This document shows, one piece after another, positions 157 through 32,000 of a stretch of 32,000 bases of DNA. The notes below the pieces were generated by a model that had not been told where the DNA came from, ran no database searches, and saw only the letters and a program-made list of their open reading frames with translations. Both the position numbers and the translations under genes were made by a program. Position 1 is the stretch's first letter, and every line of letters begins with the position of its first letter. Source of the stretch: Methanocaldococcus jannaschii DSM 2661 (lineage in GTDB: Archaea; AGJL01; Methanococci; Methanococcales; Methanocaldococcaceae); the NCBI RefSeq assembly GCF_000091665.1, contig NC_000909.1:122871-154870 (forward strand), in the 5' to 3' direction.

Positions 157-507
157 TTATTTTTCTTCAAGGTCTTTTATAATCTTTTCAAACTCTTTCT
201 TTATCTCTGGAATTTCATATTTTGCAGTTTCCCAAACTGTTAAATAATCTACACCAAAATATTGGTGGATTAATTTATCCCTCATTCCAGCCAATTCTTT
301 AAATGGGATGTGTGGATATTTTTCTCTAATATCCTTTGGTATCTTTTTAACTGCCTCTCCAATAACTTCTAAGCATCTAATAACTGCGTATTTTATTGCT
401 TTATTGTTTATAAACTCCTCATAATCCATATCTTTAGTGAAGTTAATTATATCATCCATGTAGGATAAAATATCATATAAAAATGCCTTTATATCTCTCT
501 TCGGCAT
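157..507 (-). CDS. hepT: HepT-type HEPN toxin (DUF86), pair A
   Basis: 116 aa. RX4HXY HEPN motif within MRDKLIHQYF. Lies 10 nt downstream of an MNT gene on the same strand. Paralogous to 798..1163. Confidence 0.85.
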   Translation of the reverse strand: MPKRDIKAFLYDILSYMDDIINFTKDMDYEEFINNKAIKYAVIRCLEVIGEAVKKIPKDIREKYPHIPFKELAGMRDKLIHQYFGVDYLTVWETAKYEIPEIKKEFEKIIKDLEEK

Positions 508-517
508 TTAACCACCA

Positions 518-826
518 TTAAATATAAATTAAATCTTCTTCAATGGATTTTTTTACATAAGGGTTGTGAATAGAGTTTTTTGTAATTAAATCAACTTTAA
601 TTTCCAATAAATCTGATAGATAATTCTCCAACTCTATCAATTTTAATAAACTTATTGGCTCATAGTAGTCAATTAATATGTCTATGTCTGAGGTTTCAGT
701 TTGTTCATTTCTTGCATAAGAGCCAAATATGGCTATAGATTTAACTTTATATTTTTCTTTTAATTCTTTTTTATGTTTCCTTAAGATTTCTTTTATTTCA
801 GATAGAGTTTTCATCCTCTCCCTCAA
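518..826 (-). CDS. mntA: MntA-type minimal nucleotidyltransferase antitoxin, pair A
   Basis: GSYARNEQTETSDIDIL matches the GSxxR...SDxD minimal NTase motif. The true start is probably ATG 814 (MKTLSEIK...), which aligns with the paralogue at 1470. Overlaps the 3' end of the upstream HEPN gene. Confidence 0.85.
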   Translation of the reverse strand: MRERMKTLSEIKEILRKHKKELKEKYKVKSIAIFGSYARNEQTETSDIDILIDYYEPISLLKLIELENYLSDLLEIKVDLITKNSIHNPYVKKSIEEDLIYI

Positions 827-1163
827 TGTCTTTTATAATTTCCTCTATTTCTTTTATATCGTTTGGAACTTTATTAATTACAATATCCCAAATAATCTCA
901 TAATTTATTCCAAAATAATGATGAATTAACTTATCTCTTAACCTTGCCATGCCTTTCCACGGAACTTGTGGATATTTATTTATAAAATCTTCTGGAAGAT
1001 TTTTAACTGCCTCACCAATAACTTCTAAACTTCTAATCACTGCTTTTTGTGTCTTTTTATCTTTTAAAAACTCATCAAATGTCATATCATTTGTGAAATC
1101 GATGATATCTTTCATATTCTCTAAGATGTCATATAAAAATGCTCTAACATCTTTTTTAGGCAT
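798..1163 (-). CDS. hepT: HepT-type HEPN toxin (DUF86), pair B
   Basis: 121 aa. RX4HXY motif within LRDKLIHHYF. Lies 10 nt downstream of MNT 1174..1470. Confidence 0.85.
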   Translation of the reverse strand: MPKKDVRAFLYDILENMKDIIDFTNDMTFDEFLKDKKTQKAVIRSLEVIGEAVKNLPEDFINKYPQVPWKGMARLRDKLIHHYFGINYEIIWDIVINKVPNDIKEIEEIIKDIEGEDENSI

Positions 1164-1173
1164 TTAATCACCA

Positions 1174-1470
1174 CTATACATAAATTAAATCCTCTTCAAT
1201 AGATTTTTTAATATAAGGATTTTTTATCGCTCCTTTAATAACTAAATCTACTTTAATTCCTAATAAATCTGATAGATAATCCTCCAACTCAAAGAATTTG
1301 AGATAGTCAGGAGTTTCATAAAATTCCACTAAAATGTCTATATCGCTTTTTTCTGTCTGTTCATTTCTTGCATAACTTCCAAATATAGCAATAGATTTGA
1401 CTTTATATTTTTCTTTGAGTATTTTTTTATGCTTTCTTAGGATATCTTTTATTTCAGAGATGGTTTTCAT
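1174..1470 (-). CDS. mntA: MntA-type minimal nucleotidyltransferase antitoxin, pair B
   Basis: GSYARNEQTEKSDIDIL motif. The N-terminal about 45 aa are nearly identical to 518..826. Confidence 0.85.
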   Translation of the reverse strand: MKTISEIKDILRKHKKILKEKYKVKSIAIFGSYARNEQTEKSDIDILVEFYETPDYLKFFELEDYLSDLLGIKVDLVIKGAIKNPYIKKSIEEDLIYV

Positions 1471-1615
1471 AGTTTCACCAAATTTTTATTAATAATAAAA
1501 TTTTATTTTAAGAATTTAAGTTTTTCCTTGTTTTCCAACTTTAACAATTAGAGAAAAATTTTAAATATTATGTAGTAATTAACTTAAAATAAAGTTTCTT
1601 TATATAAATGGTGCT

Positions 1616-2128
1616 ATGTTATCTTTTGTTGTTATGTCATTCTTAATTTTTGTGATAGTTATGGTTAATGAACATAAAGCTCATCTTTCAGTGATTCAAA
1701 AGATGATATTGGCAGTTGTAAATGGTAGTATTACCATTATACTATCGATAATTGTATTTTATATCTTCTACCCGCAAAATATTAGCTTATTTCTTATTAC
1801 TGCTGGGATTTTAACGGTTTTTGTATTTTTGTATGGTTTGCTTCTATTTTTATTTGGATTTACTCATAGAGAGCTGTCTTATCTATCAAAATATGATAAA
1901 TACAAATTTTTATGTAAATTCACAATTGAAATGTTTTCATCTTTAACAAATCATGCATTTTTAACAATATCCGCAATTGTTTTATACCAAATACAACATC
2001 CAAAGCCTACAATTGATTTTATAGTTATGATTGGAATGATAACAATCTCAGTAATTGTTGTTATGTTGTTATTTCTAAAAACTTACTCTATTATAATAAA
2101 ACAACTTAAAAAATTAGAAAATAATTAA
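1616..2128 (+). CDS. Hypothetical polytopic membrane protein (170 aa)
   Basis: Four to five long hydrophobic segments. GGTG SD 3 nt upstream of ATG 1616. No family recognised. Confidence 0.55.
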   Translation: MLSFVVMSFLIFVIVMVNEHKAHLSVIQKMILAVVNGSITIILSIIVFYIFYPQNISLFLITAGILTVFVFLYGLLLFLFGFTHRELSYLSKYDKYKFLCKFTIEMFSSLTNHAFLTISAIVLYQIQHPKPTIDFIVMIGMITISVIVVMLLFLKTYSIIIKQLKKLENN

Positions 2129-2241
2129 CTTACCTCCTTTTCTATCTTACTGACATTATAGTAAAAAAGAACTGCCACACTAATCATAATAATCCCAATT
2201 GCTATAACTCCAACAACAAATGGATTTAATTCCATAGTCAT
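2125..2241 (-). CDS. Small single-TM protein, 38 aa (MTMELNPFVVGVIAIGIIMISVAVLFYYNVSKIEKEVS)
   Basis: Hand-translated. GAGGT SD directly upstream. One clear hydrophobic helix. Stop overlaps the convergent stop of 1616..2128. Below the ORF-track cut-off. Confidence 0.35.
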   Translation of the reverse strand: MTMELNPFVVGVIAIGIIMISVAVLFYYNVSKIEKEVS

Positions 2242-2307
2242 CAACCTCTTTTTTGTTATCATTAATTATGTTAAGTTATGGTTTTATATATTGTGGTTGA
2301 TTAAAAT

Positions 2308-3584
2308 CTAAGTTTTTACTCTAACTTTTCCAGTTAATAATAACTCCATAATTTTCTTTTTCATTCTTTGTAGTTTTTCTTTCTTTTGTTTTTTCAATTC
2401 TATGCTTTTATCTACTGAACTTAATATTTTAGCTATTTGTTTTTGCTCTTCTAAAGGAGGGAGAGGGATTTTAAAGTTTTCAAGCATAGATTTTGATAAT
2501 TCTTTAAAAGTGCTTCCCCCACTTAGATTTTCAAGTAAATTTTTTTTAAACTTTAAATAATAAGCATAAAATTCAGTATTAACCGAATCGTTATTTTTTG
2601 GAATAATCCCTTGCAACCTTGATTAAATGTAGATTCTACAGTTAAAACTGCAACATACCCAACTGGTGCTCTTGTTGATATAATAATTGAACCTTTTGGA
2701 ATTAAATTTAAGTTACACTTTTCTAATGCTATTTTTGTTACTTTTCTTTCACTACTTCCAATATAGATTTTTTCATTTAACCTGCTTAAATCCAATGGTG
2801 TTATCCAATTTATTTCTCCATTTTCCCAATATTCTGATTTTTTAGTTGATGGGGTAGTTCCCGTTTTTACTTCAAATATATCTTTAATCTCAAAAACTTC
2901 CCAATCCTCTGGAATCTCCCCAATCTCAGATTTTTTAAATCTACTATGCCCTATTCCCTTAGTTAATAATTTATGCATTAAACCCTTTTTAATCCTCTCC
3001 AATTTATTAATTGATTTCTCAATAATCTCAATACCTTCATCAATTTTAGTTAAAATTTTAGCTATTTGTTTTTGCTCTTCTAATGGAGGGAGAGGGATTT
3101 TAAAACTTTTTACTATTTGAGCATTCAAATTTTTCTGTGTTGTTTGCATTCCTAACTTAGAGTAATAATTTTTATTTTTAGCTAAAATATAATACAAAAA
3201 TTCACTTTCTAAAATATTATCTTTTGGTATTATCCCTAAAATTGCTTGATTTGTGGCTACTTCTATTTTATTTATTGCTGTTTCTCCAATACTTCCATAC
3301 ATAGCAAATAATACAGAATTTTTCGGAACTATCCACGCATTGGAATTATTTAAACCTTCTTCAGTTATTTTTATTTTTGTATTGGTTAAATATTTATTTG
3401 AATTGGTTATATCTTCAATTTTAACAAATGGAATAGTCCCATTTTTATAATATTCTTCTACACTGGTTTTTGGTGTTCCTCCTGCTTTTATTTTTTTACA
3501 AACATCCTTTAGCTCAACAATCTCCCAATCCTCTGGAATCTCTCCAATCTCTGTTTTTTTAAAATTCTCTTCTTTATAGAACAT
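2308..3584 (-). pseudogene. hsdS: Type I R-M specificity subunit HsdS, split by a 1-nt frameshift near 2611-2622 (as sequenced)
   Basis: Two target-recognition domains. The conserved spacer [18 protein letters not shown] occurs twice (about 50-bp direct repeat, 2427-2480 and 3056-3109). ORF 2553..3584 ends ...[10 protein letters not shown] in the wrong frame. ORF 2308..2616 resumes with QGIIPKNN, which parallels [12 protein letters not shown] of TRD1. Adding one T to GGTT would give [12 protein letters not shown] in frame. Confidence 0.85.
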
Positions 3585-3937: not shown

Positions 3938-5681
3938 TTAACTTCCAGCCCTTAAAATTCCCTCAACATATCCAATAACTTCATCTAAAACCTCTTTCTC
4001 CTTCTTCTCAATCTCCTTAAACTCCTCTAACTCCTTCCTTAAATCAATATCCTCCTTCTCCTCAACTGGAAAGACATACAAGCTAACATTCAGATTATAA
4101 TCATTCTTTCTAATCTCCTCTAAATCAACAACTCTGCTAAACCCTTCAATATCCTCCCAATTCTCATAGACATCAACAATCTTATCAATATTCTCCTCCC
4201 CCAATCTATTCAATCTCCTAACCTCTGGATGCTTCTCAAACTCCAAAGATGCATTTATAAATAAAATCTTCCCCTTCCTCTCCTCTGGCTTATTTTTATT
4301 TAAAATCATCACAATTCCTGGAGCTGTAACATTATAAAACAACTTCTCTGGCAATAAAATAATAGCCTCAATTAAATCCTTCTCAACAATCTCCTTCCTT
4401 ATCTTCTTCTCCTTCCCTCCTCTAAATAATGCCCCTGAATCTAAAACAATTCCCACTTTTTTCCTCGCAAAATACAACATCAATTGAACCCATGCCCAAT
4501 CTGCTGACTGCTTAGGAGGATAACCACCTCTAACAAAAGTGTTATAAATCCTCCTAACATCTGGATTTTCCTTTAAAACATCTTCATTATATCCATCCAA
4601 GTTCCATGGTGGATTGGCAATGGTATAATCAACCTCTCCAAATTTTGGGATTTTTTAAGCTATCTCCAATATAAATCTCATACTCCTCACTATCAACTCC
4701 ATGTAATATCAAATTCAACTTTGCCAAAATTGCCATAATCTCATTTCTCTCCTGCCCATAGAGATAAATCTCCCCCCCATAGTTATCTTTAACATACCTA
4801 TAAGATTCAATCAGCATAGTTCCGCTACCACAGGCAGGGTCTAAAACCTCACTATCTTTTTCAATATCCAACAAATTCACTATCAACCTAACAACCTCTA
4901 CTGGAGTATAGACCTCCCCCTCTTTACATTTTTGAGGGGCAAAGTATGACAAAATCCATTGATATGCATCACCAATAGCATCATAATCAATCTCTGAAAA
5001 GTCCATCTCATTATAAACTCTAACCAATTCCTCCAAAATATGCATGTTATCCTCATTAATAAACCCAATAAGCCCCAAAACCTCAACCAATTTAGATAAA
5101 TCTTTTAAATTATCATTAAGATTTGCTATCTTGTTTAATGCATTTGCCAACTCCATTATTGTCTCTCTACTTTTAACAATTTCATGCCAAACATACAACT
5201 TTCCTTCATCTTCATCATAGAGCGTTAAATAACTCCTATTTGCCATTAGATAAGCCTGTGTTTTAGAATATCCCTCACTAACGAATTTCTCAACTAATGC
5301 CAGATATTTATCACTAATTGCCTTATAAAATAAAAATACCAATAACACTTTGTAATCAACACTCGTTCTAATTAAATCTGCACAATATTTTAGATTTCTT
5401 ATTAAATTATCTTTTGTTGGTTTCTTTGCTGATTTAACAAATTGATATAACCTTTTTCTTTTATCCTTAGGGTCTTTCTTTGCTATAATTATTTCCTTTC
5501 TTCTTAAAATAGATAAAAGCTCTTTTGTATTCTCTGCTTCAATTCCTTCTTCTTTTAAAGCTTTATCTGCCTCTTCTAAGGTAAATGGTTCATATTTAAA
5601 CTTTTTAAATAAAATACTTCCTCTTTTTTTAACCCAATTGTCTAAATCTGCAAACTCTAATAGCATTGTATCACCATACAA
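3938..5681 (-). pseudogene. hsdM: Type I R-M N6-adenine methyltransferase HsdM, split by a 1-nt frameshift at the run 4643-4646 (as sequenced)
   Basis: SAM motif I, LDPACGSGTMLI, lies in ORF 4629..5681. The catalytic motif IV, DYTIANPPWN, lies between the two track ORFs in the frame of 3938..4600. Removing one A from CCCAAAATTT gives a continuous GDSLKNPKFGEVDYTIANPPWNLDGYNEDV. The probable true start is ATG 5666, with a GGTGA SD 4 nt upstream. Confidence 0.88.
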
Positions 5682-5733: not shown

Positions 5734-6555
5734 CTACAACTCATTATAACACTTCATCAACAAAACAGCGTCATACTCCAACATAGGACTTTCACATATA
5801 ACAGTTCCAGAGGCATCAAAATCCTTCAAAGCTTTTAAAACATCTCTATAGTTAAAGTTAGATTCATTTAAAGGCAAATGTCTCCTTTCTCCTCCTTTTC
5901 CATATTCTATTCCAGATAAATGAATATGCATATCTTTTATAGCCTCTTTTCCTAAAACATTCTCAACTTTTTCAAGAATTTTATAAAAAGAGTTGTAATC
6001 GTTTATAACTCCCCTACTTCTTGCATAAATATGGGAGAAATCAATACATGGTAAAATATTCAGCTCAAAGCATAATTTTAGTGTCTCATCAATATCTCCA
6101 AATTGAGTAGTTTTTCCAGTAGTTTCAGGCCTTAGCATAACATTTAAATTTAAAGCCTCTAACTTATCCAAAATTCTCTGAATATTTGATTTTATTCTAT
6201 TGTAGGTTACTTCTTTACTTCTTTTCAAATAATATCCAGGATGAAAAACTAAATTTTTTCCACAATTATTCAAAACCTTAGCAGTTTTAATTATTCTCCT
6301 TATGCTATTCTCTACTTTTTCCTCCTCATTTGCATTAAGATTTATATAGTGAGGGGCATGGGCTGAGAAAATAATATCTTCTCCATACTCTTTCAACTTT
6401 TTAGCATAATCTTCTTTCATATAAACTCCTTTAACAAATTCCAACTCCATAGCTCCTAAATTTAATTTTCTTAAGACATCTACAGCTTTAAATTCATCCT
6501 CTGCAGATATTGGAACTCCAGCAGTGCCAAATATCAACATAATTTCCCTATTCAT
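5734..6555 (-). CDS. Endonuclease IV-like protein (AP endonuclease family 2, xylose-isomerase-like TIM barrel)
   Basis: 273 aa. Metal-ligand-like blocks SAHAPHYINL, VFHPGYY, RPETTGK, IDFSHIY and MHIHLSG follow the family layout. Confidence 0.6.
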   Translation of the reverse strand: MNREIMLIFGTAGVPISAEDEFKAVDVLRKLNLGAMELEFVKGVYMKEDYAKKLKEYGEDIIFSAHAPHYINLNANEEEKVENSIRRIIKTAKVLNNCGKNLVFHPGYYLKRSKEVTYNRIKSNIQRILDKLEALNLNVMLRPETTGKTTQFGDIDETLKLCFELNILPCIDFSHIYARSRGVINDYNSFYKILEKVENVLGKEAIKDMHIHLSGIEYGKGGERRHLPLNESNFNYRDVLKALKDFDASGTVICESPMLEYDAVLLMKCYNEL

Positions 6556-6631
6556 TTTCTTTCTTATCCTCTTTTTCTTCTTTATCTAAAGGCTTAGGGG
6601 GGACTCTTGCAACCGTTATATATCCAGCCAT
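6548..6631 (-). pseudogene. Displaced duplicate of the trmI 3' coding end (reads MAGYITVARVPPKPLDKEEKEDKKENE*)
   Basis: Hand-translated. Aligns codon for codon with the trmI C-terminus GYITVARVPPEPLDREEEKE. Its stop, TAG 6548-6550, overlaps the start of the downstream gene (ATG 6555-6553). Confidence 0.7.
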
Positions 6632-6684
6632 AGGGAAACCCTATTGGGATACCCTAACACCTCCTCGCTTACGCTCGGAGGTGT
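6630..6684. repeat. GC-rich bipartite palindromic element, copy A (possibly one of the published M. jannaschii MJRE palindromic repeats)
   Basis: Hairpin 1 is ATAGGG-AAA-CCCTAT (6630-6644). The linker is TGGGATACCC. Hairpin 2 is ACACCTCC (6657-6664), loop TCGCTTACGCTC, GGAGGTGT (6677-6684). Related copies are at 12177-12237 and, in part, 8332-8358. Confidence 0.75.
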
Positions 6685-6693
6685 AAATTATTT

Positions 6694-7542
6694 TTATTCT
6701 TTCTCTTCTTCTCTATCTAAAGGCTCTGGTGGAACTCTCGCGACAGTTATGTATCCAGTATGTCCAATCATCCTTGTTGATGGCCTAACACCTTTTTCAG
6801 AGATTTCAATCTCTCTCTCAATAATCTCATAGGTGTGGATATCCCAAAATCCTTCCTCTTTAAGCTTCTCTACAGTTTTTTTAACTTGCTCTATGTATGG
6901 GAGATAAGTAACTATTCTCCCCCTCTTTTTGTTTAAAGCCTTTTTTGCATTCTCTACAACATTCCAGGGGTCTGGTAAATCTAAGACAATAACATCAACA
7001 TCCTTCTCATCTATCTTCTCCCTAACATCTCCAATTTTTTGTATGACATTGAATAATCCATCTTCAATTTCAATCTCATCCTCATCATCAAACTCTTCAT
7101 CTAAACCAATAATTTTTTGCCCTTTTTTAATAGCTCCAACTCTCAACAGATTTTTCCTTGCAACTTTGGCAAATTCTGGCCTTATATCATAAGTAATAAC
7201 TTTCCCTGTCTTACCAACAGCATTTGATAGATACATAGTTAAAGCTCCAGAGCCAGTTCCAGCTTCAACTACTGTCTCTCCCTCTCTAATTCCAGCTCTT
7301 GCTATAATAAACCCAATATCTTTTGGTAATAGGGTTGTTACTGTCCTCTTCATTCTCTTTAAGATATCAAACATTGTAGGTTCAACCAAATAGAAAGTAT
7401 GTCCTTTGTGGGATTTTAACTCAACTCCTTCCTCAATATCCTTCATATCTACAATTCCCAAATCTGTTCCAAACTTCTCAACATTCTTTTTTAACAAATA
7501 TCTCTTCCCTCTCTCATCCACTAACAATTTATAAGCAAACAT
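6694..7542 (-). CDS. trmI: tRNA (adenine-N1)-methyltransferase TrmI/Gcd14 family
   Basis: 282 aa. SAM motif VVEAGTGSGALTMYL, DLPDPW catalytic-region motif, and an acidic insertion DEEFDDEDEIEIED. Confidence 0.8.
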   Translation of the reverse strand: MFAYKLLVDERGKRYLLKKNVEKFGTDLGIVDMKDIEEGVELKSHKGHTFYLVEPTMFDILKRMKRTVTTLLPKDIGFIIARAGIREGETVVEAGTGSGALTMYLSNAVGKTGKVITYDIRPEFAKVARKNLLRVGAIKKGQKIIGLDEEFDDEDEIEIEDGLFNVIQKIGDVREKIDEKDVDVIVLDLPDPWNVVENAKKALNKKRGRIVTYLPYIEQVKKTVEKLKEEGFWDIHTYEIIEREIEISEKGVRPSTRMIGHTGYITVARVPPEPLDREEEKE

Positions 7543-7546
7543 AATA

Positions 7547-8239
7547 TCACTCTATAATTAGCTTTGTCTGTTTTGATTTATCCAATATCCTTTTACATGT
7601 TTTCCAGTGAGTTCTTGCAATATCAGGAAGTTTTTTATGCTTTTTAAAGTAATCTTCAAGAAACTTTATAGTTTTTGGGTCTGATGGATAACCGCTCCCA
7701 ATATCTCCATAAATTTTTTTGTAGTAGTCTATTATCTCATCCCGTTCTGCCTTTGCTATTATTGAGGCAGCTGAAACAACAGGATACTTAGCATCTGCCT
7801 TATGTTCAGCTATAATTTTTATGTTTAAATTTCTTTCTTTAATTATATCCTCTATCTTATCTTTAAAACTATCCTCAAATTTTTTAGTGTTTGTACTGCA
7901 TGCATCAATATAAATTTCAATTTCATCATCCCTTATATTCAACTTTTCTATCAAATTTTTAGCAACCTTGGAAAAGGCGTTAATTTCAATATCATTTAAG
8001 TTTATTGAGTTCATTAATTGGTTTATTTCCTCTGCTTCTAAGATACGTTTTTCTACATAACCCAAATTTTCAAGTAACTTTTTTAGATAAGCCCTTTTAT
8101 TTTTAGTTAGCTCCTTACTATCTTTAACTCCCAATTTCTTTAATTCCTCTTCTCTCTCTTTTTCAATTGCAAAAGCACAAACAACCATTGGACCCAAAAC
8201 AGGCCCTCTTCCAGCTTCATCAATACCAATAATTATCAT
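7547..8239 (-). CDS. rnhB: Ribonuclease HII
   Basis: 230 aa. IIGIDEAGRGPVLGPMVV N-terminal active-site block, VSAASIIAK, and GSGYPSDP. Confidence 0.9.
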   Translation of the reverse strand: MIIIGIDEAGRGPVLGPMVVCAFAIEKEREEELKKLGVKDSKELTKNKRAYLKKLLENLGYVEKRILEAEEINQLMNSINLNDIEINAFSKVAKNLIEKLNIRDDEIEIYIDACSTNTKKFEDSFKDKIEDIIKERNLNIKIIAEHKADAKYPVVSAASIIAKAERDEIIDYYKKIYGDIGSGYPSDPKTIKFLEDYFKKHKKLPDIARTHWKTCKRILDKSKQTKLIIE

Positions 8240-8290
8240 AATTGCACCTCTTTTTTAAAACGAAATCTAAAAGTATTACATAGCTAAATT

Positions 8291-8358
8291 GGACATTAAT
8301 TGGGGCTGAAAGCCCCAACTTAATGGACGTCGGGTATCCCAATAGGGCGGAGCCCTAT
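8291..8358. repeat. GC-rich palindromic element, copy B (inverted relative to copies A and C, with a different second hairpin)
   Basis: Extended hairpin CATTAATTGGGGC-TGAAA-GCCCCAACTTAATG (8294-8325), then GGGTATCCCA, then ATAGGGC-GGA-GCCCTAT (8342-8358). Positions 8291-8322 are an exact inverted copy of 20803-20834. Confidence 0.75.
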
Positions 8359-8473
8359 GGATAGGAAATGCATTTCTGCTCATAAGTTTATCTCTATATA
8401 ATAATTTCTACTTAGTTTAAGCAGTAAGCATTTTATATGCTTTTTTAAAGAATATTAAAATACTACAAAAACC

Positions 8474-8582
8474 TATAGTTTTTTGCAAAAGTCATTAAAA
8501 TTCATAATGAAAATTTGAACGCCTTCCTTTGGAAGGCGTTCATTAATGCCTTATCCATCTTAAATATTTGCAAAAAACTATA
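8474..8582. repeat. Long-stem palindromic element: 16-bp outer inverted repeat plus a central 11-bp GC hairpin
   Basis: TATAGTTTTTTGCAAA (8474-8489) pairs with TTTGCAAAAAACTATA (8567-8582). The centre is GAACGCCTTCC-TTT-GGAAGGCGTTC (8517-8541). It ends 2 nt before the purP SD AGGTGA. Confidence 0.7.
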
Positions 8583-8596
8583 ATTAGGTGAAATAA

Positions 8597-9682
8597 ATGA
8601 TTTCAAAAGATGAGATTTTAGAGATTTTTGATAAATACAACAAAGATGAGATAACAATAGCAACATTAGGAAGCCATACCTCTTTGCATATTTTAAAAGG
8701 AGCTAAATTAGAAGGCTTTTCTACTGTTTGTATAACTATGAAGGGAAGAGATGTTCCATACAAGAGATTTAAAGTTGCTGATAAATTTATATATGTTGAT
8801 AACTTTTCTGACATAAAAAATGAAGAGATTCAAGAGAAATTGAGAGAGTTAAATTCTATTGTAGTTCCACACGGCTCTTTTATTGCATACTGTGGTTTAG
8901 ACAATGTGGAAAATAGTTTTTTAGTCCCAATGTTTGGGAATAGGAGAATATTAAGATGGGAATCAGAGAGAAGCTTAGAAGGAAAGCTGTTGAGAGAAGC
9001 TGGATTAAGAGTTCCTAAGAAGTATGAAAGCCCAGAAGACATTGATGGAACAGTTATAGTCAAATTCCCAGGGGCAAGAGGTGGAAGAGGTTACTTTATA
9101 GCTTCATCAACAGAGGAATTTTATAAAAAAGCTGAGGATTTAAAGAAAAGAGGAATATTGACTGATGAAGACATAGCCAACGCACATATAGAAGAGTATG
9201 TTGTTGGAACTAACTTCTGCATACATTATTTCTACTCTCCATTGAAGGATGAAGTTGAGTTATTGGGAATGGACAAGAGATATGAAAGTAATATAGATGG
9301 TTTAGTTAGAATTCCAGCAAAAGACCAATTAGAGATGAATATAAATCCAAGCTATGTGATTACTGGAAATATTCCAGTTGTTATTAGGGAGAGTTTATTA
9401 CCTCAAGTCTTTGAGATGGGGGATAAGTTAGTTGCTAAGGCTAAAGAGCTTGTTCCACCAGGAATGATTGGACCTTTCTGTTTGCAGAGTTTATGTAATG
9501 AGAATCTTGAATTAGTTGTCTTTGAAATGAGTGCAAGAGTTGATGGTGGAACAAACAGCTTTATGAATGGTGGCCCTTACTCTTTCCTATACAATGGAGA
9601 GCCATTGAGTATGGGGCAGAGAATTGCAAGAGAGATAAAGATGGCTCTACAATTAGATATGATTGATAAGATTATTTCATAA
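8597..9682 (+). CDS. purP: 5-formaminoimidazole-4-carboxamide ribonucleotide (FAICAR) synthetase PurP, ATP-grasp
   Basis: 361 aa. IATLGSHTSLHILKGAKLEGF N-terminus and the ATP-grasp core are typical of archaeal PurP. AGGTGA SD is upstream. Confidence 0.85.
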   Translation: MISKDEILEIFDKYNKDEITIATLGSHTSLHILKGAKLEGFSTVCITMKGRDVPYKRFKVADKFIYVDNFSDIKNEEIQEKLRELNSIVVPHGSFIAYCGLDNVENSFLVPMFGNRRILRWESERSLEGKLLREAGLRVPKKYESPEDIDGTVIVKFPGARGGRGYFIASSTEEFYKKAEDLKKRGILTDEDIANAHIEEYVVGTNFCIHYFYSPLKDEVELLGMDKRYESNIDGLVRIPAKDQLEMNINPSYVITGNIPVVIRESLLPQVFEMGDKLVAKAKELVPPGMIGPFCLQSLCNENLELVVFEMSARVDGGTNSFMNGGPYSFLYNGEPLSMGQRIAREIKMALQLDMIDKIIS

Positions 9683-10051
9683 GTTAGTATCTTGTGAAAA
9701 ATTTAATATTGCTTAGCTTTATTTCTTTAAAACTTTATTCGTTTATTTAGAGGTTTTAAATTTAATTTCTAAGGGTTTGCTGGTTTGATTGTTTAGAATA
9801 TTTAACTTAATCAAATTATTCAGATTTTTGAAAATTAAGATTAATTAGGCAAGTAAATAAAATTTCTCTAACTAATAAGTTAAATTTTTGGATTTAAAAA
9901 GATAAGAATGCTCTGTTTTATTAAAGGGAGAAAATTTTAAATATTAAAAGGTTTATATTATGGAGTAGTTACTTACCCTTAGAAAAATATGGTATAGAAA
10001 AGCTTAAATATTAAGAGTGATGAAGTATATTATGTTGTGAATGATTGCCCT
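9683..10051 (+). promoter_or_regulatory. CRISPR leader (AT-rich, about 370 bp) with a candidate TATA box TTTATATTA at 9952-9960
   Basis: It lies on the side of the array carrying the intact consensus repeats; degenerate repeats are at the far end. It contains no ORF. The TATA-like motif is about 90 nt upstream of repeat 1. Confidence 0.6.
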
Positions 10052-11130
10052 ATTAAAATCAGACCGTTTCGGAATGGAAATCAGGGAGGTAGGAGGGAGG
10101 TTCTCCTTGGATTTCTATTAAAATCAGACCGTTTCGGAATGGAAATCTATTAAGTCCCATGCAGACCTACCAATACGTTCATAGTAAGGCCTAATTAAAA
10201 TCAGACCGTTTCGGAATGGAAATTATGTTACAAAAGTTGGAGAGGAAGATTTAAAACTTGATTAAAATCAGACCGTTTCGGAATGGAAATTTAATTCTAA
10301 TGCCTTGTTTTTTACATCTTCTGGAAATTAAAATCAGACCGTTTCGGAATGGAAATGTCTTTAATTTCATCTCTATAGCTTCTTCTATTGCTTTAAATTA
10401 AAATCAGACCGTTTCGGAATGGAAATAATGTAAATTTAAAAATATAACGTTGCAAATAAGGAATTAAAATCAGACCGTTTCGGAATGGAAATCAGTAGTT
10501 AAAACTTAAAGCACAAAACACCTTCATTCCATTAAAATCAGACCGTTTCGGAATGGAAATGAAGTATTTTTATCTTTTGCGATATTTTCTATAATCTCAT
10601 CAATTAAAATCAGACCGTTTCGGAATGGAAATTATTTTTGTTGTTTAAATCTATTGTGTATAATGTGGTAATTAAAATCAGACCGTTTCGGAATGGAAAC
10701 TTTTTGCTTCATTTTCATTTAAATTAACTATAAAACAGTAATTAAAATCAGACCGTTTCGGAATGGAAACATGGAGCAAAACAACATATTGTTTTAATAG
10801 TGGATGATTTTTAATTAAAATCAGACCGTTTCGGAATGGAAACGCATTACAGAATTTATATTATTTATATACTGTTTATGATTAAAATCAGACCGTTTCG
10901 GAATGGAAACAAAACACCACCTTCAATAAACTTATCAATTTGATATTTATTAAAATCAGACCGATTCGGAATGGAAATTGTATTAATTCCAGTTGTAATA
11001 TTTGATAATGAGACATTAAAATCAGATTAAAATCAGACCGTTTCGGAATGGAAACTTTATCTAATTTAACCCGCTTATGGTTTTAGATGAACCCCGCTCC
11101 ATTAAAATCAGACCGATTCGGAATGTGAAA
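10052..11130 (+). CRISPR. CRISPR array: 16 repeats of 30 bp and 15 spacers of 35-47 bp
   Basis: Repeat starts: 10052, 10117, 10194, 10261, 10327, 10397, 10463, 10531, 10603, 10671, 10741, 10814, 10881, 10949, 11026, 11101. Consensus ATTAAAATCAGACCGTTTCGGAATGGAAAT. Repeats 10-13 and 15 end in C. Repeats 14 and 16 carry CCGATTC. Repeat 16 is further degenerate (GAATGTGAAA). All spacers are unique. Confidence 0.97.
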
Positions 11131-11243
11131 ATCCCTTAGCTTTTTTTATATTGTCTTATTAATAGGATAGAAATCTGTAAAAATAGAGTTATTTAGATTT
11201 AATGATAATTGCAACATAAAAAAGTATAATGTAATTAATTATT

Positions 11244-12104
11244 CTATTTAGCCCCATTCTCCTGTTTTACTGGATATGGCATAAATTCAACTGTTCCCCT
11301 TTGTCTTACTGGTTGCTTATACAATTCCATTAATGTATAAACCTCTTCAGGAACATTCGTATCTACATCTAAACCAAGTTCTTTAGCTTCTTCAACAGTT
11401 ATTGGATAGTCATGAGTCCATCTTCCTTCTGTTAATATCTTAGACAATTCTTTGGCTTTTTCTTCTCCATACTTATCCTTCAATAAATTATATACAAAAT
11501 TTTGAACTTGATTTATTGCTTTTTTAGCAATATCTGCCAATATTAATGTTTGGTCGTCTGCTTTATCAGCCCCTTTCTGCTCTACAGCTTTAACTATACT
11601 TGGAGCAGGATATTGCCCAAGTTGTGGGTCTACAGGTCCCAAAACTGCATTTTCATCCATGATTATTTTATCTGCAGCTAAAGCTATTAAAGTTCCTCCA
11701 CTCATTGCATAGTGTGGAACTATAACTCTCGTCTCTGCTGGATGAGCTTTTAATGCCTTTGCTATTTGAGTAGCTGCCAAGACTAAACCTCCTGGTGTGT
11801 GTATAATTAAATCTATAGGTTTATCTTTTGGAGCTGCCCTTATGGCCCTCAAAATCTCCTCACTATCTTCAATTGTTATAAATTTATAAACTGGAATTCC
11901 AAACAAGCCAATACTCTCCTGCCTATGTATCATAGTTATTACTGTTGAATTTCTTTTATTTGATAGCTCTCTAAGTATTTTTAATCTTGCAAGTTGTAAT
12001 TGCTTATACTGTATTTGAGGAGCCATAATTAAATAAAAGAACAAAAGCCACCAAATTAATGAGCTAATAAAACCACTTAATGGGTCCATTTTCTCCCCCC
12101 ACAT
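11244..12104 (-). CDS. Membrane-anchored ClpP-class serine protease (SDH / SppA-like family)
   Basis: 286 aa. N-terminal TM helix, then IHTPGGLV and MSGGTLIALAADK blocks of the ClpP/crotonase-fold peptidases. The likely start is ATG 12089, preceded by GGGGGGAG. Confidence 0.65.
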   Translation of the reverse strand: MWGEKMDPLSGFISSLIWWLLFFYLIMAPQIQYKQLQLARLKILRELSNKRNSTVITMIHRQESIGLFGIPVYKFITIEDSEEILRAIRAAPKDKPIDLIIHTPGGLVLAATQIAKALKAHPAETRVIVPHYAMSGGTLIALAADKIIMDENAVLGPVDPQLGQYPAPSIVKAVEQKGADKADDQTLILADIAKKAINQVQNFVYNLLKDKYGEEKAKELSKILTEGRWTHDYPITVEEAKELGLDVDTNVPEEVYTLMELYKQPVRQRGTVEFMPYPVKQENGAK

Positions 12105-12123
12105 AAATAAAATGAAAGTTCTT

Positions 12124-12172
12124 TTAGATTATCTTTCTCATCCAATTATCTAACCTCTCTAAAAAGTTATCT
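12124..12172 (-). pseudogene. Displaced original 3' end of the CobQ-like gene (reads ...[15 protein letters not shown])
   Basis: Positions 12139-12172 are 34/34 identical to 12267-12300, inside the intact gene. Hand-translation continues in frame to a stop at 12124-12126. Confidence 0.7.
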
Positions 12173-12266
12173 CCCCATAGGGCTATCGCCCTATTGGTAT
12201 ACCCGGGATGCATTGCCTCGCTTACGCTCGGCAATGCCTCTTAAATTAATATTTATTAATATTTTC
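12173..12266. repeat. GC-rich bipartite palindromic element, copy C (94-bp insert bounded by 34-bp direct repeats)
   Basis: Hairpin 1 is ATAGGGC-TATC-GCCCTAT (12177-12194). The linker is TGGTATACCC. Hairpin 2 is GCATTGCC (12210-12217), loop TCGCTTACGCTC, GGCAATGC (12230-12237). The AT-rich tail 12246-12266 encodes the C-terminus now in use, ENINKY*. Confidence 0.8.
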
Positions 12267-13694
12267 CATCCAATTATCTAACCTCTCTAAAAAGTTATCT
12301 TCCTCATCCTTTATATGATTATTTATTTCAACCTCTGGGATTTCTATTTCTAAATCAACATTAAAGGCATTTCTGCAGAAGCTTTCATAATCAATCTCTA
12401 CTTCTGGAATTAGTCCCCTACTCTCATTAGCTATTTTTCCAACTCCATAGAGCTTTATGTTATGTTTTTCAGCCAAACTTTTTAATTTATTGAAAGAGTT
12501 CCAATCATAGACTTTATTTAAAATTACTCCTTCAACTTTAATCCCAATATCTTTGAGTAGGCTGTAATAAGCCATTGCCTCTACAAAAGCTCCCTCTATC
12601 CCACTTATATTGCAAGCACTTACTATATAAACTGGAAATCCAAGCTTTTTGGCTATTTGATAAGAGGAAATATTTTTTAATGCTGCAGTAAAAGCTCCCA
12701 TAACCCCTTCAACAATTATGTAATCATAATCTGACTTTTTTATATAATCTAAAAATTTAGAAACATCAACCCATCCTCTCTCTCCAATCTTTATGCTGTT
12801 GTATTTTGTCATCTTCTCTCTCAATAAATAAAGAGCTGGCACTATATCCCTAACATCCCCGCCAATCTTAGCAACAAAAACTCTTCCATTTAATTTTGAT
12901 GATAAAGCAGTTGTTAAAAACGTCTTTCCACTGTTTGATGATGTTGCCAATAAAATAATCCCTCTTTTTTTATTAACATCTTTTTTATTATTCTCTTTTA
13001 GTAATTTTGGGTTTAATCTATATTTTAAAGCCCTCTTTTTTAATTCATCTTTTATAATCTTATTTTTTTCAAATATTTCCTCTTTCTCATCCTCTGTAAC
13101 TCCCAAATGTTTTAAAAAATTGTCTCTGACAAATTCATTATCTAAGAAGTTATGAACCATTGTTCCAAACACTTTTCCTTTAAAAGCTCCAGAGATAATT
13201 TCTTTTTCAGCTCCAAGTTTATAATTTAGCTTTTTTACTTTTGAAACTGTTAGAATTTTAGTTTCTTTATCAACTACCTCAATATTTCCATAAGTATGGC
13301 AGTGAAACCCTTCTCCCTTTCCCTCTCCAAATATTGATTTTTTTACTTCAAATTCTACTCTATCTGTGCAAACTAATGGAGAAAACTCAACATCCAACAA
13401 ACCTAAGCCCTCTTTAATTATTGGAACGCTGCTTTTTCTTCCAATGTCTATCTTTTTAGCTAATATCTGAAAACCACTGCAAATGCCAATTATATACCCA
13501 TTAAAGTTAATTATTTCTTTTTTTAAATCATCATTTAATGATTTACTTTCAATTAAACTTCCTCCAGGTATTATCAAAGCATCTAAATCTTTAATTTCTT
13601 TATAATTATTTTCAGTTATAATCTTTGTTGGTAGATTGCCGAAATCTTCAAATAATGGAAGAGACCCCTTAATATCCAAAATACCAATTTCCAT
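12246..13694 (-). CDS. CobQ/CobB-like glutamine amidotransferase with permuted domain order (GATase N-terminal, DTBS/CobQ-type P-loop C-terminal)
   Basis: 482 aa. The N-terminal half has IIPGGS, GICSGFQ (nucleophile Cys) and HNFLDNE, as in the CobB/CobQ GATase domain. The C-terminal half has ATSSNSGKT (P-loop) and VEGVMG. Confidence 0.6.
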
Positions 13695-15473: not shown

Positions 15474-15549
15474 TGGTGGGCTCGGCGGGATTCGAACCCG
15501 CGACCACCGCCTTGTGAGGGCGGCGTCATAGCCACTAGACCACGAGCCC
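15474..15549 (-). tRNA. tRNA-Val (anticodon CAC), CCA encoded
   Basis: Folded by hand as a 76-nt cloverleaf. Acceptor GGGCTCG/CGAGCCC; anticodon stem CCGCC/GGCGG; loop CTCACAA; T arm GCGGG-TTCGAAT-CCCGC; 3' ACCA. Confidence 0.93.
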
Positions 15550-20705: not shown

Positions 20706-20802
20706 TAACCAATTATCAAAGTTTTTAATTAAATAAGGCACATATAGAAGCCCTTTGGGCTTCTAAATTCCATAGTAAATAATATCCTTTGATAATTGGT
20801 TA
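20706..20802. repeat. Long-stem palindromic element: 16-bp outer inverted repeat plus a central 8-bp GC hairpin
   Basis: TAACCAATTATCAAAG (20706-20721) pairs with CTTTGATAATTGGTTA (20787-20802). The centre is AGAAGCCC-TTT-GGGCTTCT (20746-20764). The interior resembles 8490-8566 in reverse orientation (shared TGCCTTAT, ATG-AATTT-GAA). Confidence 0.7.
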
Positions 20803-20834
20803 TAAGTTGGGGCTTTCAGCCCCAATTAATGTCC
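20803..20834. repeat. GGGGC-hairpin repeat, an exact inverted copy of 8291-8322; supplies the last two codons and stop of the ATPase gene
   Basis: TAAGTTGGGGCTTTCAGCCCCAATTAATGTCC is identical over 32 nt to the reverse complement of 8291-8322. On the minus strand, GGA CAT TAA gives G H stop. Confidence 0.8.
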
Positions 20835-21941
20835 ATTCAGTAATTTCTTTATAGCATTCCAGATTAAAAATGATTGTGGTTTTAAAATTCCTTCAATAGG
20901 ATTTAGGAATAAAATATTTTTCTTAACTAAATAAATATAAACTGGTTCTGGTATATCATCATCACTAACTTCATAATTTTCTTTAAATAATTTTAACGCA
21001 TTTATAATATCATCCTTTTTAATCTCAATGATTTCATCTTTAAGTTCTACTTTTGGTTTTATATAATCCAACTCCTTTAAAAAATACTTTAGTTTTTGAG
21101 TTTCTTCTTTAAGCATTAAATTTAGAATATCTTCTAACTTCCTATACCTCATCTCATCAATCACACTGTAGATATATACCGGTTTTCCTCCTACATAGTT
21201 ATAGATTAACTCTTTATCTTCATCAGAGAGTTTTTTATTTAAAATCTCTTTAGCCAAGAAATCCATAAATTTTAAAGCTGTCTCTTTATCAAAGTCATCC
21301 ACTAAGAGGTATTTGGCTCTACCTTCCAACTCTCCAGCACTATAAACATATTCAATAAATAAGCTATCAGAACTTAGACAAAAAACATGGCATAGATGTT
21401 GTTCTTTAGTTAAAGAAACTAAAAACTGAAACAACTCTTTTAACAAGTATTTTTGCCAATTTAAAACTACATCTTTAATCATCTGAAGTTCATCAAGTAT
21501 TAACACTGGCTGTTTTCCACTCTTTTTAACCTCTAATAGTATAGAGTTTAAGTATTGGAAGGCATCATTTATTTTCTCTTCAAATAATTTATCAAACTCT
21601 ACTTCAGGTATTGGAATACCAGTTAAAATCTTAGCCCCTTTTGTTATCAAATTTAAAACTTCTGATTTATCTTTTATTTTTTCAAAGAAATCATCTTTTT
21701 TAGTGGTAAAGATAGCTTCAATAAATTCCCTCTTTTCTGAAATTAAATAAGTCCTAAAATTAATATAAAAAACCTTATAATCATCACTTAGTTTGTTTTC
21801 AATGATGTGTTTTATTAGAGCAGTTTTACCAGAATTTAAAGGGCCGTAGATGAAATAAATTATATTTGGTTCTCCCTCTAAGATTGATAGAATTTCATGA
21901 ATTTCTTTTTCTCTATTGAAGAATTTCATTTGAATCACCAT
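20826..21941 (-). CDS. Archaeal ATPase family protein (P-loop NTPase, Arch_ATPase/DUF234-type)
   Basis: Walker [12 protein letters not shown] and Walker B LILDELQ. The likely start is ATG 21929 ([10 protein letters not shown]), with GGTGA 5 nt upstream. Confidence 0.75.
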
Positions 21942-21947
21942 TTCAAT

Positions 21948-30199: not shown

Positions 30200-31609
30200 A
30201 TGTTTGATGATATCCCTGTCTCTGTTGGGCCGATGAATGAGGGGGAGAGAGTTAGGGGCCCTGATATGTATGTTGAACTTGCAGGGCCGAAGAGTTATGG
30301 TTTTGAGTTGGTAAAAGTTGTAAATAAAGCAGAGGATAAGGTTGAAATTATAGGAAAAGATATTGATGAGATGGAAGAGGGTAGTAGAAACCCATTCGCT
30401 ATAATTGTTGAAGTTAGTGGAAGTAATTTGGAGGAAGATTTAGAAGGAGTTTTAGAAAGAAGAATCCATGAGTTTTTAAATTACATAGAAGGAGTAATGC
30501 ACCTAAACCAAAGAGACCAAGTATGGATAAGAATAAATAAGGATTCTTTTAATAAGGGATTGAGATTAAAGCATATTGGAAAAGTCGTTCAAAGATTGTT
30601 TAAGGCAGAGTTTCCGTTTATAGAAAAATGTGATGTAACCATCATAACAGACCCAGAAAAAGTTAAAGAAGAGTTAGAAAAGGCAAGAGAAATTTACAAC
30701 AAAAGAGATGAGAAAACTAAGGCACTGCATGAAGAGGATGTTGATGTATTCTATGGTTGTGTGATGTGTCAAAGTTTCGCTCCAACACACGTGTGTGTTA
30801 TAACTCCAGACAGACCAGCGTTGTGTGGAGGTATAAACTACTTAGATGCAAGGGCTGCTGCTAAAATAGACCCTAACGGACCGATATTTGAAATACCTAA
30901 AGGAGAATGCTTGGATGAAAAGTTAGGAATTTACTCTGGAGTAAATGAAGTTGTTAGAGAAAGGTCTCAAGGAACTGTTGAAGAGGTAACCCTACATAGT
31001 GCATTAGAAAAACCTTGCACATCTTGCGGATGCTTTGAGGCTATTGTCTTCTACATCCCAGAGGTTGATGGATTTGGTATAGCACATAGGGGATATAAAG
31101 GAGAAACTCCAATGGGAATTCCATTCTCTACTTTAGCTGGGCAGTGTAGTGGTGGAAAGCAGGTTCCTGGGTTCGTTGGTATTTCAATATCTTATATGAA
31201 ATCCCCTAAGTTCTTACAGGGAGACGGTGGTTGGGAGAGGGTTGTTTGGTTACCGAAAGAGTTAAAAGAGAGAGTTAAAGATGCGATACCAGAAGAGTTG
31301 TATGATAAGATAGCTACAGAAGAAGACGTTAAAACAACTGATGAATTAATCAAGTTCCTAAAAGAAAAAGGACACCCATGTGCTGAAAGAATAGGTGCTG
31401 AAGTTGAAGAAGAGGCAATTGAAGAGGAAGAAGTAGAAGAAGAGATGGAAGAAGTTGAAGGAATTGAAGTACCAACTATGACTCTTCCAGGAACATTTGC
31501 TGGGCTTCCACCAGGAATAAAAATAGTCTTATACAATGCAGTAATTAAAGCAGAAAAAATAATTATTACAAAAGAAGAGCCAGAAAAGAAGAAGAAAAAG
31601 AAGAAGTAA
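30200..31609 (+). CDS. cdhC: CODH/ACS beta subunit (acetyl-CoA synthase, A-cluster), short archaeal form
   Basis: 469 aa. CVMCQSFAPTHVC...LCG [4Fe-4S] ligands and the CTSCGCFE Ni-binding Cys-Gly-Cys. An acidic region, then a poly-Lys tail. GGTGA SD upstream. Confidence 0.9.
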   Translation: MFDDIPVSVGPMNEGERVRGPDMYVELAGPKSYGFELVKVVNKAEDKVEIIGKDIDEMEEGSRNPFAIIVEVSGSNLEEDLEGVLERRIHEFLNYIEGVMHLNQRDQVWIRINKDSFNKGLRLKHIGKVVQRLFKAEFPFIEKCDVTIITDPEKVKEELEKAREIYNKRDEKTKALHEEDVDVFYGCVMCQSFAPTHVCVITPDRPALCGGINYLDARAAAKIDPNGPIFEIPKGECLDEKLGIYSGVNEVVRERSQGTVEEVTLHSALEKPCTSCGCFEAIVFYIPEVDGFGIAHRGYKGETPMGIPFSTLAGQCSGGKQVPGFVGISISYMKSPKFLQGDGGWERVVWLPKELKERVKDAIPEELYDKIATEEDVKTTDELIKFLKEKGHPCAERIGAEVEEEAIEEEEVEEEMEEVEGIEVPTMTLPGTFAGLPPGIKIVLYNAVIKAEKIIITKEEPEKKKKKKK

Positions 31610-31774: not shown

Positions 31775-32000
31775 TGGATACCCTGCCGGGCCCTTGGGCG
31801 ATTAGTACCGGCGGGCTGAACGCCTCGGGCAAAGCCCTCGGCGCTTACACCCCCGGCCTATCAACCTCCTCTTATAGGAGAGCCCTCGTCCCCGAAGGAC
31901 TGGCCGCCTATTTTCGGGGAGGGTTTCGGGCTTAGATGCCTTCAGCCCTTATCCCTTAGCGCGTAGCTGCCCGGCAATGCCCTGTCGGACAACCGGTAGA
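31775..32000 (-). rRNA. 23S rRNA, 3'-terminal part (the gene continues beyond the window end)
   Basis: The plus strand reads ATTAGTACCGG...GCGCTTACACCCCCGGCCTATCAACC...GGGCTTAGATGCCTTCAGC. This is the reverse complement of the universally conserved 3' domain of 23S rRNA. There is an abrupt shift to high GC. The 3' boundary is approximate (about +/-20 nt). GC-rich 31741-31774 probably belongs to the processing stem. Confidence 0.9.

Follow-up and report, generated by a model that had tools for sequence, protein, structure and literature searches.

Three places in a 32,000-nucleotide stretch of the Methanocaldococcus jannaschii DSM 2661 genome (contig NC_000909.1, positions 122,871 to 154,870 of the forward strand; the whole stretch is called the window in the following) carry a short palindromic element with two adjoining modules. 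These copies, named A, B and C, raise the question whether they are structures selected at the end of a messenger RNA, binding sites in the DNA or repeats that move from place to place. The original prediction, made from the letters alone, had seen in them a selected structure rather than a repeat. We find this to be a false opposition, as the units are mobile repeats: a sister strain lacks them at these sites, and target duplications accompany the insertions. At the same time base pairing in their second hairpin (hairpin 2) persists despite numerous sequence changes, and a few G.A mismatches remain fixed. A, B and C probably belong to a family, confined to the Methanocaldococcaceae, of mobile palindromic repeats that are small, non-coding and of the MJRE type.

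Architecture of the three copies

The three copies were located as follows, with match scores from the covariance model described below:
6628-6690, minus strand: copy A, a 63-nt unit (62.7 bits, E=1.6e-13)
8286-8360, plus strand: copy B, with the same architecture on this strand (44.2 bits, E=3.9e-09)
12175-12262, minus strand: copy C, an 88-nt insert with the model match at 12175-12244 (89.4 bits, E=7e-20)

On the sense strand of the preceding gene the common unit has about 66 nt and is made up of (T)TAAGAG or AAATTT, hairpin 2, ATCCC or TA, and module 1 (GGGTATMCCAATAGGG-loop-CCCTATGG). In the plus direction copy A opens with CCATAGGG (6628-6635), AAA, CCCTAT (6639-6644), TGGGATACCC (6645-6654) and TA, followed by the hairpin 2 segments ACACCTCC (6657-6664), TCGCTTACGCTC (6665-6676) and GGAGGTGT (6677-6684). 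Read on its gene-sense (minus) strand it gives aaataattt, hairpin 2 as ACACCTCC GAGCGTAAGCGA GGAGGTGT (plus coordinates 6657-6684), ta, and module 1 as GGGTATCCCAATAGGG TTT CCCTATGG (6628-6654). Copy C likewise starts with CCATAGGG (12175-12182), CTATCG, CCCTAT (12189-12194), TGGTATACCC (12195-12204) and GGGAT, and its hairpin 2 consists of GCATTGCC (12210-12217), TCGCTTACGCTC (12218-12229) and GGCAATGC (12230-12237). On the minus strand copy C begins with an A+T-rich segment (12245-12262) that holds the codons ENINKY and a stop, continues with TAAGAG, hairpin 2 as GCATTGCC GAGCGTAAGCGA GGCAATGC (12210-12237) and ATCCC, and ends in module 1 (12175-12204). Module 1 of copy B, GGGTATCCCAATAGGGCGGAGCCCTATGG at 8332-8360, is oriented opposite to that of A and C, and its hairpin 2 reads GACATTAA-TTGGGGC TGAAA GCCCCAA-CTTAATGGAC.

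Direct reading of the sequence bears out the common two-hairpin layout described earlier for A and C, at the sites given then; only the starts of the copies had been set 1-2 nt too late, a minor point. The four differences between the hairpin 2 stems of A and C are indeed all compensated, and they all lie in the outer six pairs, since the identical stretch is 16 nt long (CCTCGCTTACGCTCGG); within it the 12-mer TCGCTTACGCTC occurs exactly twice in the window, in A and in C. The proposal that B belongs to the same family with a different second hairpin agrees with its model match of 44 bits. The linker motif CCCTATTGGKATACCC occurs three times in the window against 0.24 expected, a count that none of 100 shuffles reached. 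Among the related loci collected for this analysis (labelled L003, L123 and so on), longer copies have an added A+T-rich spacer and a second, inverted module 1 (L032, L050, L110 and L178) and look like miniature inverted-repeat elements.

Empty sites and target duplications

Copies A and C each stand 3' of a minus-strand gene and between two direct repeats (DR1 and DR2), found with repeat-detection thresholds set for this analysis:
6694-7542, minus strand: TrmI gene, stop at 6694-6696, with copy A 3' of it
6691-6758, minus strand: DR1 of copy A, the working TrmI 3' end including the stop at 6694-6696
6561-6627, minus strand: DR2 of copy A, a second, now non-coding TrmI tail with frame and stop kept
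12246-13694, minus strand: CobB/CobQ-like gene, stop in use at 12246-12248, with copy C 3' of it
12263-12300, minus strand: DR1 of copy C, part of the working CobB/CobQ-like 3' end
12134-12172, minus strand: DR2 of copy C, the duplicate, followed by the ancestral ending ...DNWMRKII-stop

The TrmI protein (MJ0134 protein; 6697-7542, minus strand) is identical to AAB98115.1 / Q57598. That both copies follow a minus-strand gene, as had been predicted, is correct, and the stem of A lies 9 nt past the TrmI stop; for copy C the gene is right, but the inserted DNA contains its stop in use, 8 nt past the stem.

Strain FS406-22 is empty at both sites. At site A only 17 nt separate the TrmI end from the start of the next gene, and at site C the CobQ-like gene ends in ...DNWIKKII-stop, 12 nt before the next gene. 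Site A is also empty in Methanocaldococcus sp. 16A, and in both genomes the single TrmI tail abuts the same downstream gene. The site is filled in M. bathoardescens, M. fervens and sp. 28A, each time with a different hairpin 2, and FS406-22 has an element of another subtype at the intergenic place of copy B (L123 2213-2282).

The direct repeats of copy A (67/68 nt) are 76-83% identical, and the TAG of DR2 shares nucleotides with the next gene's ATG (6555), which would be expected of the ancestral junction. Those of copy C (34-39 nt) are nearly perfect. As all orthologues of the CobB/CobQ-like protein end in DNW[IM][KR][KR]II-stop like the downstream copy, it is the upstream copy together with the insert that forms the new M. 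jannaschii ending, ENINKY-stop. Copy C thus supplies the last six codons and the stop and reaches into the coding region without breaking the gene. A and B lie outside genes; B, which has no repeat beside it, is placed between RNase HII and PurP, two divergent genes.

The same arrangement was found in other loci. Outside CRISPR arrays, 26 copies are flanked by target repeats of 20-73 bp that abut CCCTATGG. All 16 independent loci have a gene's 3' end as the repeat and a long gene of 163-1174 codons directed at the hairpin 2 end, with none in the reverse arrangement; the stop codon lies between -21 and +10 nt from the insert junction, most often 0-5 nt before it, and the target gene keeps an intact or slightly altered C-terminus. 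The module 1 end meets the duplication directly or after at most about 7 nt, and the other end is ragged and A+T-rich. We considered the 0-7 nt between CCCTATGG and the repeat as filler and rejected this, as they look like diverged extensions of the repeat. No common motif of the IS200/IS605 kind was present in the 4-6 nt before the duplication (17 loci). Insert sizes cluster at 63-71 nt; a broad series of 5' truncations was dismissed because most inserts have this modal size, which also weakens the argument for copying in the manner of a LINE (long interspersed nuclear element). At L180 (3466-3660) repeat, unit (ACACCTCC class), repeat, unit (GCATTG class) and repeat follow one another, with the same 20-nt gene tail GGAGAAAGATGATGAAATAA present three times and separating two different units.

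A scan of 6000-13000 gave no terminator made of a hairpin plus a T-run at A or C. A terminator of the bacterial type was rejected as an explanation, since module 1 is followed by the duplicated gene tail and not by a T-run.

Pairing and apex exchange in hairpin 2

In an alignment of 20 units, 11 of the 12 hairpin 2 pairs have changed on both sides while 97% of the cells remain paired; none of 500 shuffles reached these values, slid controls pair at 29-50%, and RNAalifold predicts the same helix. For 89 distinct units aligned by the covariance model, 16 of 18 pairs have changed on both sides and 97.7% of the cells are paired, which again none of 500 shuffles reached; these values lean towards the model, since the structure in the model is favoured when units are aligned by it. 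Counted directly in 59 copies, which have 30 different 5' arms, the 590 stem pairs include only 11 that are non-Watson-Crick, apart from one fixed mismatch at the base of the GCATTGCC class (23 copies), read as T.C on the element strand and as G.A on the gene-sense one. A few one-sided changes stay paired as G.U on the gene-sense strand. Hence the claim that hairpin 2 is maintained by compensatory change stands. The gene-sense strand of copy A folds with -30.4 kcal/mol (z=-5.55; other strand -27.3) and that of copy C with -32.7 kcal/mol (z=-4.76; other strand -30.7), and both strands of both copies fold far better than shuffles, with z between -4.4 and -5.6.

The apex of the hairpin behaves differently from the invariant, unpaired loop of the original prediction. 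On the gene-sense strand the 12 nt of the A/C apex form G.A, A.G, G-C and C-G plus a GUAA tetraloop, i.e. they continue the helix with a tandem purine mismatch before the tetraloop. Within the A/C apex subclass the GA..GA flank and the two inner pairs are at least 90% conserved, an inner pair covaries (G-C to A-U in L105), and the terminal loop occurs as GAA, GUA, GUAA, GUUA or GUUUA. In other subclasses the whole apex is replaced by TTCC-NNNN-GGAA or GCC-NNN-GGC, plain stems with loops of 3-4 nt. The M. bathoardescens copy orthologous to A keeps the lower stem ACACCTCC and has the apex GCC-GTA-GGC instead, from which we conclude that stems and apexes are shuffled as modules. At the same site M. 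fervens carries GTGGGGC-TGAACGTAGTGAA-GCCCCGC and sp. 28A yet another hairpin 2, L166 has a chimeric hairpin, and identical stems occur with reverse-complement loops (GTTA in L003 and TAAC in L019; TTC and GAA in the TTGGGGC class). Given these apex variants and loop flips across the family, the pattern between A and C reflects module shuffling and not stepwise compensation around a fixed loop, as had been assumed. An apparent flipping of the apex in the ACACCTCC class was rejected because it depends on which end of a full-length element is kept (L163 and L178 compared with A); real flips are fewer (L003 against L019, L088 and L105).

Family size and distribution

The original prediction had suggested a covariance-model search, and this confirms that a palindromic family exists: a model built from the 20 units gave 110 matches in 517 kb of related DNA, and in the window exactly three (C, A and B). 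The units are small (63-71 nt), non-coding and multi-copy, and a regular expression for module 1 found 72 unique copies. With the 16-nt motif CCCTATTGGNATACCC (15 specified bases) and one genome per species at least 120 loci were obtained; among the 120 matches listed, 22 come from a few Methanocaldococcaceae assemblies and the others are single chance matches in unrelated bacteria. A longer, more specific pattern gave 56 loci on metagenome contigs without a taxonomic label, some of which are the same locus in different strains, and the loci inspected there combine the same element modules with CRISPR repeats of the Methanocaldococcus type. Searching the units against Rfam gave no family at the gathering threshold; the best match below it, GA-cis (15.7 bits against 34.7, E=0.84), is at chance level and identity with an Rfam family was rejected.

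The second gene tail

Comparison of the two repeat copies across 17 gene-end insertions gives 76 positions at which the downstream, non-coding one departs from the coding one; they fall on codon positions 1, 2 and 3 in the ratio 13/8/55 (P=4e-12 against equal thirds). Counted by codon, 52 changes are synonymous and 19 non-synonymous, with one stop-to-stop and one nonsense change. In each of three species the spare tail at the TrmI site retains GYITVARVPP in frame together with a stop, and GCG is common to the coding copies where the spare copies and the element-free alleles have GCA. At one locus the repeat copies of three strains are 84%, 88% and 100% identical with mosaic halves, and mosaic repeat copies also occur in L133, L174 and L178.

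We infer that the spare tails were repeatedly replaced from functional alleles or were recently part of them, either by homologous recombination with element-free genomes and gene conversion or because the unit travels with the gene tail of a donor. A small open reading frame starting at the ATG inside CCCTATGG was also considered; it is in frame with the spare tail in copy A and was dropped because copy C and the M. bathoardescens orthologue both have it out of frame.

CRISPR arrays and ATPase genes beside the units

In about ten more cases a copy is located within the degenerate last repeat that closes a CRISPR array on one side, always at the same position of the repeat (L046, L056, L088, L135, L136 around 362-402, L139, L149, L150, L172 and L181). 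The junction is GGTCTGA(A/T)TT followed directly by CCATAGGG, and the units consist of module 1 plus either the TTGGGGC hairpin or a TTTAACCAATTATCAAAG element. These copies carry a half-repeat of the CTCTTGGAGG type even in arrays of the CGTTTCGG type. The window itself contains an array at 10025-11131 with 16-17 repeats ATTAAAATCAGACCGTTTCGGAATGGAAAT (Rfam CRISPR-DR13), the last of them degenerate, which is flanked by the PurP-side genes and a protease gene (11244-12104).

We searched for a possible mover by an all-against-all comparison of the reading frames in about 490 kb of DNA flanking the elements. It returned only CRISPR pseudo-frames, housekeeping orthologues and genes for ATPase_2 / MJ1010-like proteins (PF01637 + PF21690), which form, with 12 members, the sole multi-copy protein family of these flanks. 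Such genes adjoin repeat units far above expectation and are found in the window (20829-21947) as well as in L010, L032, L050, L070, L097, L111, L142, L160 and L176. The junction from hairpin 2 through CTCTTAATATGTAAAAGGTGAAAC to the ATG of the ATPase is conserved in L050, L070 and L111 and more loosely in L032. The matches of the MJ1010-like ATPase in PADLOC were all weak and of AAA type. Directly past the stop of the ATPase gene in the window, two other palindromic modules are located at 20706-20835: TTTAACCAATTATCAAAG...CTTTGATAATTGGTTA with the inner hairpin AGAAGCCCTTTGGGCTTCT, and then TAAGTTGGGGCTTTCAGCCCCAATTAATGTCCA, a 33-nt module that is a perfect inverted copy of the hairpin of copy B (8290-8322).

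Proposed mechanism and alternative explanations

We suggest that the folded single strand of the unit may be recognised by a host- or element-encoded enzyme during propagation, which would preserve the hairpins even as their sequence drifts. The gene-sense polarity would be the likelier recognised strand, as the conserved mismatches are purine-purine there and the fold is slightly more stable. Insertion would be strand-specific and one-ended: the constant end would be joined precisely, and priming or annealing in the A+T-rich stretch immediately after the stop codon would resolve the ragged end, a step that would create a long and variable duplication. Later, repeats and hairpin modules may be swapped by homologous recombination and gene conversion, in which element-free alleles and other copies take part. 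Of these steps we infer the folded strand with the most confidence, the one-ended and strand-specific insertion with less, and the subsequent reshuffling of cassettes by host recombination with the least.

Several observations weigh against an account of the units as mobile repeats with this mode of insertion. No transposase, reverse transcriptase or HUH nuclease was present among the multi-copy reading frames of the flanks, and variable duplications of 20-73 bp fit no standard transposase. The two strands fold almost equally well, and the wobble pairs show no clear bias between them (3 vs 4). The loci were collected through exact matches to module 1 and form a biased sample. The coding-like constraint on the non-coding repeat copy is not predicted by insertion followed by decay, and recombination with element-free alleles therefore has to be added as an assumption. 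Furthermore the duplication boundaries recur, for the two units of L180 and for different units at the TrmI site of three species, and this fits an inherited or recombined ready-made cassette at least as well as fresh insertions.

We tentatively consider a more far-reaching possibility, which we hold to be rather doubtful as a whole: the unit and 20-73 bp of a gene 3' end might form a cassette that spreads by a strand-specific route undescribed for any prokaryotic repeat. It would be made by one-ended, target-primed insertion and then moved by homology between alleles, strains and CRISPR repeats, with the folded gene-sense strand and its G.A pairs as the signal for the enzyme. Such a cassette would explain the coding-like spare tail, the recurrence of boundaries with different units and the fixed orientation.

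It appears unlikely to us that the units exist chiefly as RNA elements which the host has selected at the mRNA 3' end, either as protection against exonucleases, as a mark for processing or termination or as the site of an RNA-binding protein. In all 16 gene-end insertions the mRNA strand does carry the purine-purine mismatches and a GNRA-type loop, it folds slightly better in both A and C (-30.4 vs -27.3 and -32.7 vs -30.7 kcal/mol), it retains one-sided changes as G.U, and the covariation is strong. Yet many copies lie away from gene 3' ends, with B between divergent gene starts and about ten in CRISPR arrays, in 15 copies a gene end is found at the opposite side, identical stems carry loops of either orientation, and sister strains lack the element at both sites. 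The stems are moreover almost purely Watson-Crick without strand-biased wobble, neither a T-run after the hairpins nor an Rfam match was found, and the target duplications point to insertion and not to a signal that evolved locally. We prefer the mobile repeat as the explanation and regard the two stable hairpins that the mRNA would form at its 3' end as a side effect or secondary use, not as the reason for the family.

It is improbable that the units serve as duplex or cruciform DNA sites for a candidate host protein such as the MJ1010-like ATPase, in the manner of REP (repetitive extragenic palindromic) sequences and BIMEs (bacterial interspersed mosaic elements). Most units have no such ATPase gene nearby, the association may reflect only shared variable regions or co-duplication, and the conserved mismatches make sense in a folded single strand but not in a duplex; these points stand against the position of the ATPase genes as the only multi-copy family in the flanks, the junction to their ATG that is conserved between paralogues in four loci, and composite arrays of units that resemble BIMEs. 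A retroelement-like or other target-primed copying, with a fixed template end, microhomology at the far junction and a second, variable nick, would account for one constant and one ragged end, the variable length of the duplications and the strict orientation, and also for the A+T-rich microhomology at the ragged junction (TAAGAG vs TAAAAG in L097, TCTAAGAG vs TTTAAGAG in L127 and 15 nt in L055). We nevertheless give it very little credence, as no reverse transcriptase was found among the multi-copy reading frames of the flanks, the inserts have no A-tail and mostly the modal 63-71 nt without a spread of truncations, and identical boundaries recur, which argues against repeated independent nicking. 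We also know of no reverse transcriptase in M. jannaschii. Chance similarity, or remnants of local duplications with neither family nor structure, could draw only on the low complexity of an A+T-rich genome and is practically negligible, being refuted by the motif counts against shuffles, the 110 model matches and a covariation above every control.

Further features of the window

Just upstream of the PurP start, a strong palindrome, TGAACGCCTTCC-AAA-GGAAGGCGTTCA at 8516-8542 (within 8495-8563), is followed by a T-rich run and looks terminator-like on the minus strand in the terminator scan. At 12103-12133 M. jannaschii carries about 21 extra nt (aagaactttcattttatttat) compared with FS406-22 (L125 3941-3952); they are placed after the CobQ-like gene's ancestral stop and before the next gene's ribosome-binding site. 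Diverged direct repeats follow each other in series at 167-3563 with a spacing of about 624-656 nt (167-466/823-1122, 660-835/1316-1491, 2399-2480/3028-3109 and 2864-2939/3488-3563); they lie upstream of an N6 methylase-like gene (4629-5681) and suggest tandem paralogous gene segments. Two 300-nt stretches (25313-25612 and 30208-30507), 4.9 kb apart, are 100% identical, and the identity may run further. A tRNA gene is located at 15477-15549 on the minus strand, and the 3' end of a large-subunit rRNA gene reaches the window edge (31782-32000).

Relation to known elements and meaning

MJRE repeats were reportedly described in M. jannaschii by Suyama, Lathe and Bork in FEBS Letters in 2005. Our units are most likely these published repeats, and the guess made in the original prediction is very probably right; the likeness lies in their description, namely the same genome and short, palindromic, multi-copy elements that are mostly extragenic and in some cases lie in coding regions without destroying them. 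Palindromic repetitive elements of M. jannaschii named MJRE1-3 are cited in PMC2229807 and PMC2996958. The palindromic repeats as an object are thus already known, having been in the M. jannaschii literature since 2005, and are not a new RNA gene or regulatory RNA. To our knowledge, the MJRE literature gives no account of duplications of 20-73 bp, a fixed gene-end orientation, a G.A apex or copies at CRISPR ends. The passages on these elements in PMC2229807 and PMC2996958 contain none either.

In behaviour, the units resemble most closely the bacterial REP/REPIN elements and gene-invading MITEs (miniature inverted-repeat transposable elements). Like REP, REPIN and BIME sequences, which are linked to RAYT (IS200-like Y1) proteins, they are short imperfect palindromes with conserved mismatches and covarying stems, are found singly, as inverted pairs and as mosaics, often lie directly behind genes and have been proposed to be recognised as a folded single strand. 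They differ in being archaeal and in having no GTAG-type 5' tetranucleotide, and no gene for a RAYT-like or Y1 (IS200-like) transposase was seen in the flanks. We know of no report of REP insertions with long target duplications. MITEs such as Correia, ERIC and RUP, and the Rickettsia palindromic elements, share with our units the small size, the non-coding nature, the many copies, inverted terminal modules in full-length copies, the ability to extend or alter reading frames and the hairpins formed in mRNA upon transcription. Their target duplications are however short and fixed (e.g. TA) or missing, in contrast to the variable 20-73 bp of the units (26 copies); terminal inverted repeats are present only in the longer copies, whereas A, C and the other units of the common 66-nt kind have module 1 at only one of their ends; and no parent insertion sequence is known, with no transposase found among the multi-copy reading frames in about 490 kb of flanks.

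The attC sites of integrons are similar in being imperfect palindromes at the 3' ends of reading frames, in one orientation, with structure and a few unpaired bases conserved, and in functioning as a folded single strand, which for the units is a proposal. Unlike attC sites the units have no R/L core sites (GTTRRRY) and no cassette array, their conserved ends are CCATAGGG/CCCTATGG and TAAGAG, and the flanking gene-end duplication has no attC counterpart; neither an integrase nor an attI site was noticed among the multi-copy or adjacent reading frames of the flanks. With LINEs and SINEs (short interspersed nuclear elements) they share a target duplication of variable length, an exact junction on one side and microhomology on the other, but no reverse transcriptase was found in their flanks, they lack an A-tail, their insert size is mostly uniform and their host is a prokaryote.

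What may be new is the footprint of insertion. To the known repeats it adds long and variable gene-end duplications, a single orientation, spare tails that look like coding sequence and G.A mismatches within a covarying hairpin, and it bears on how such elements move in an archaeon in which no matching transposase was found in the flanks of the units. If a distinct route of insertion or homing is indeed behind it, this would be a new way for small pieces of DNA to spread through compact genomes without breaking genes.

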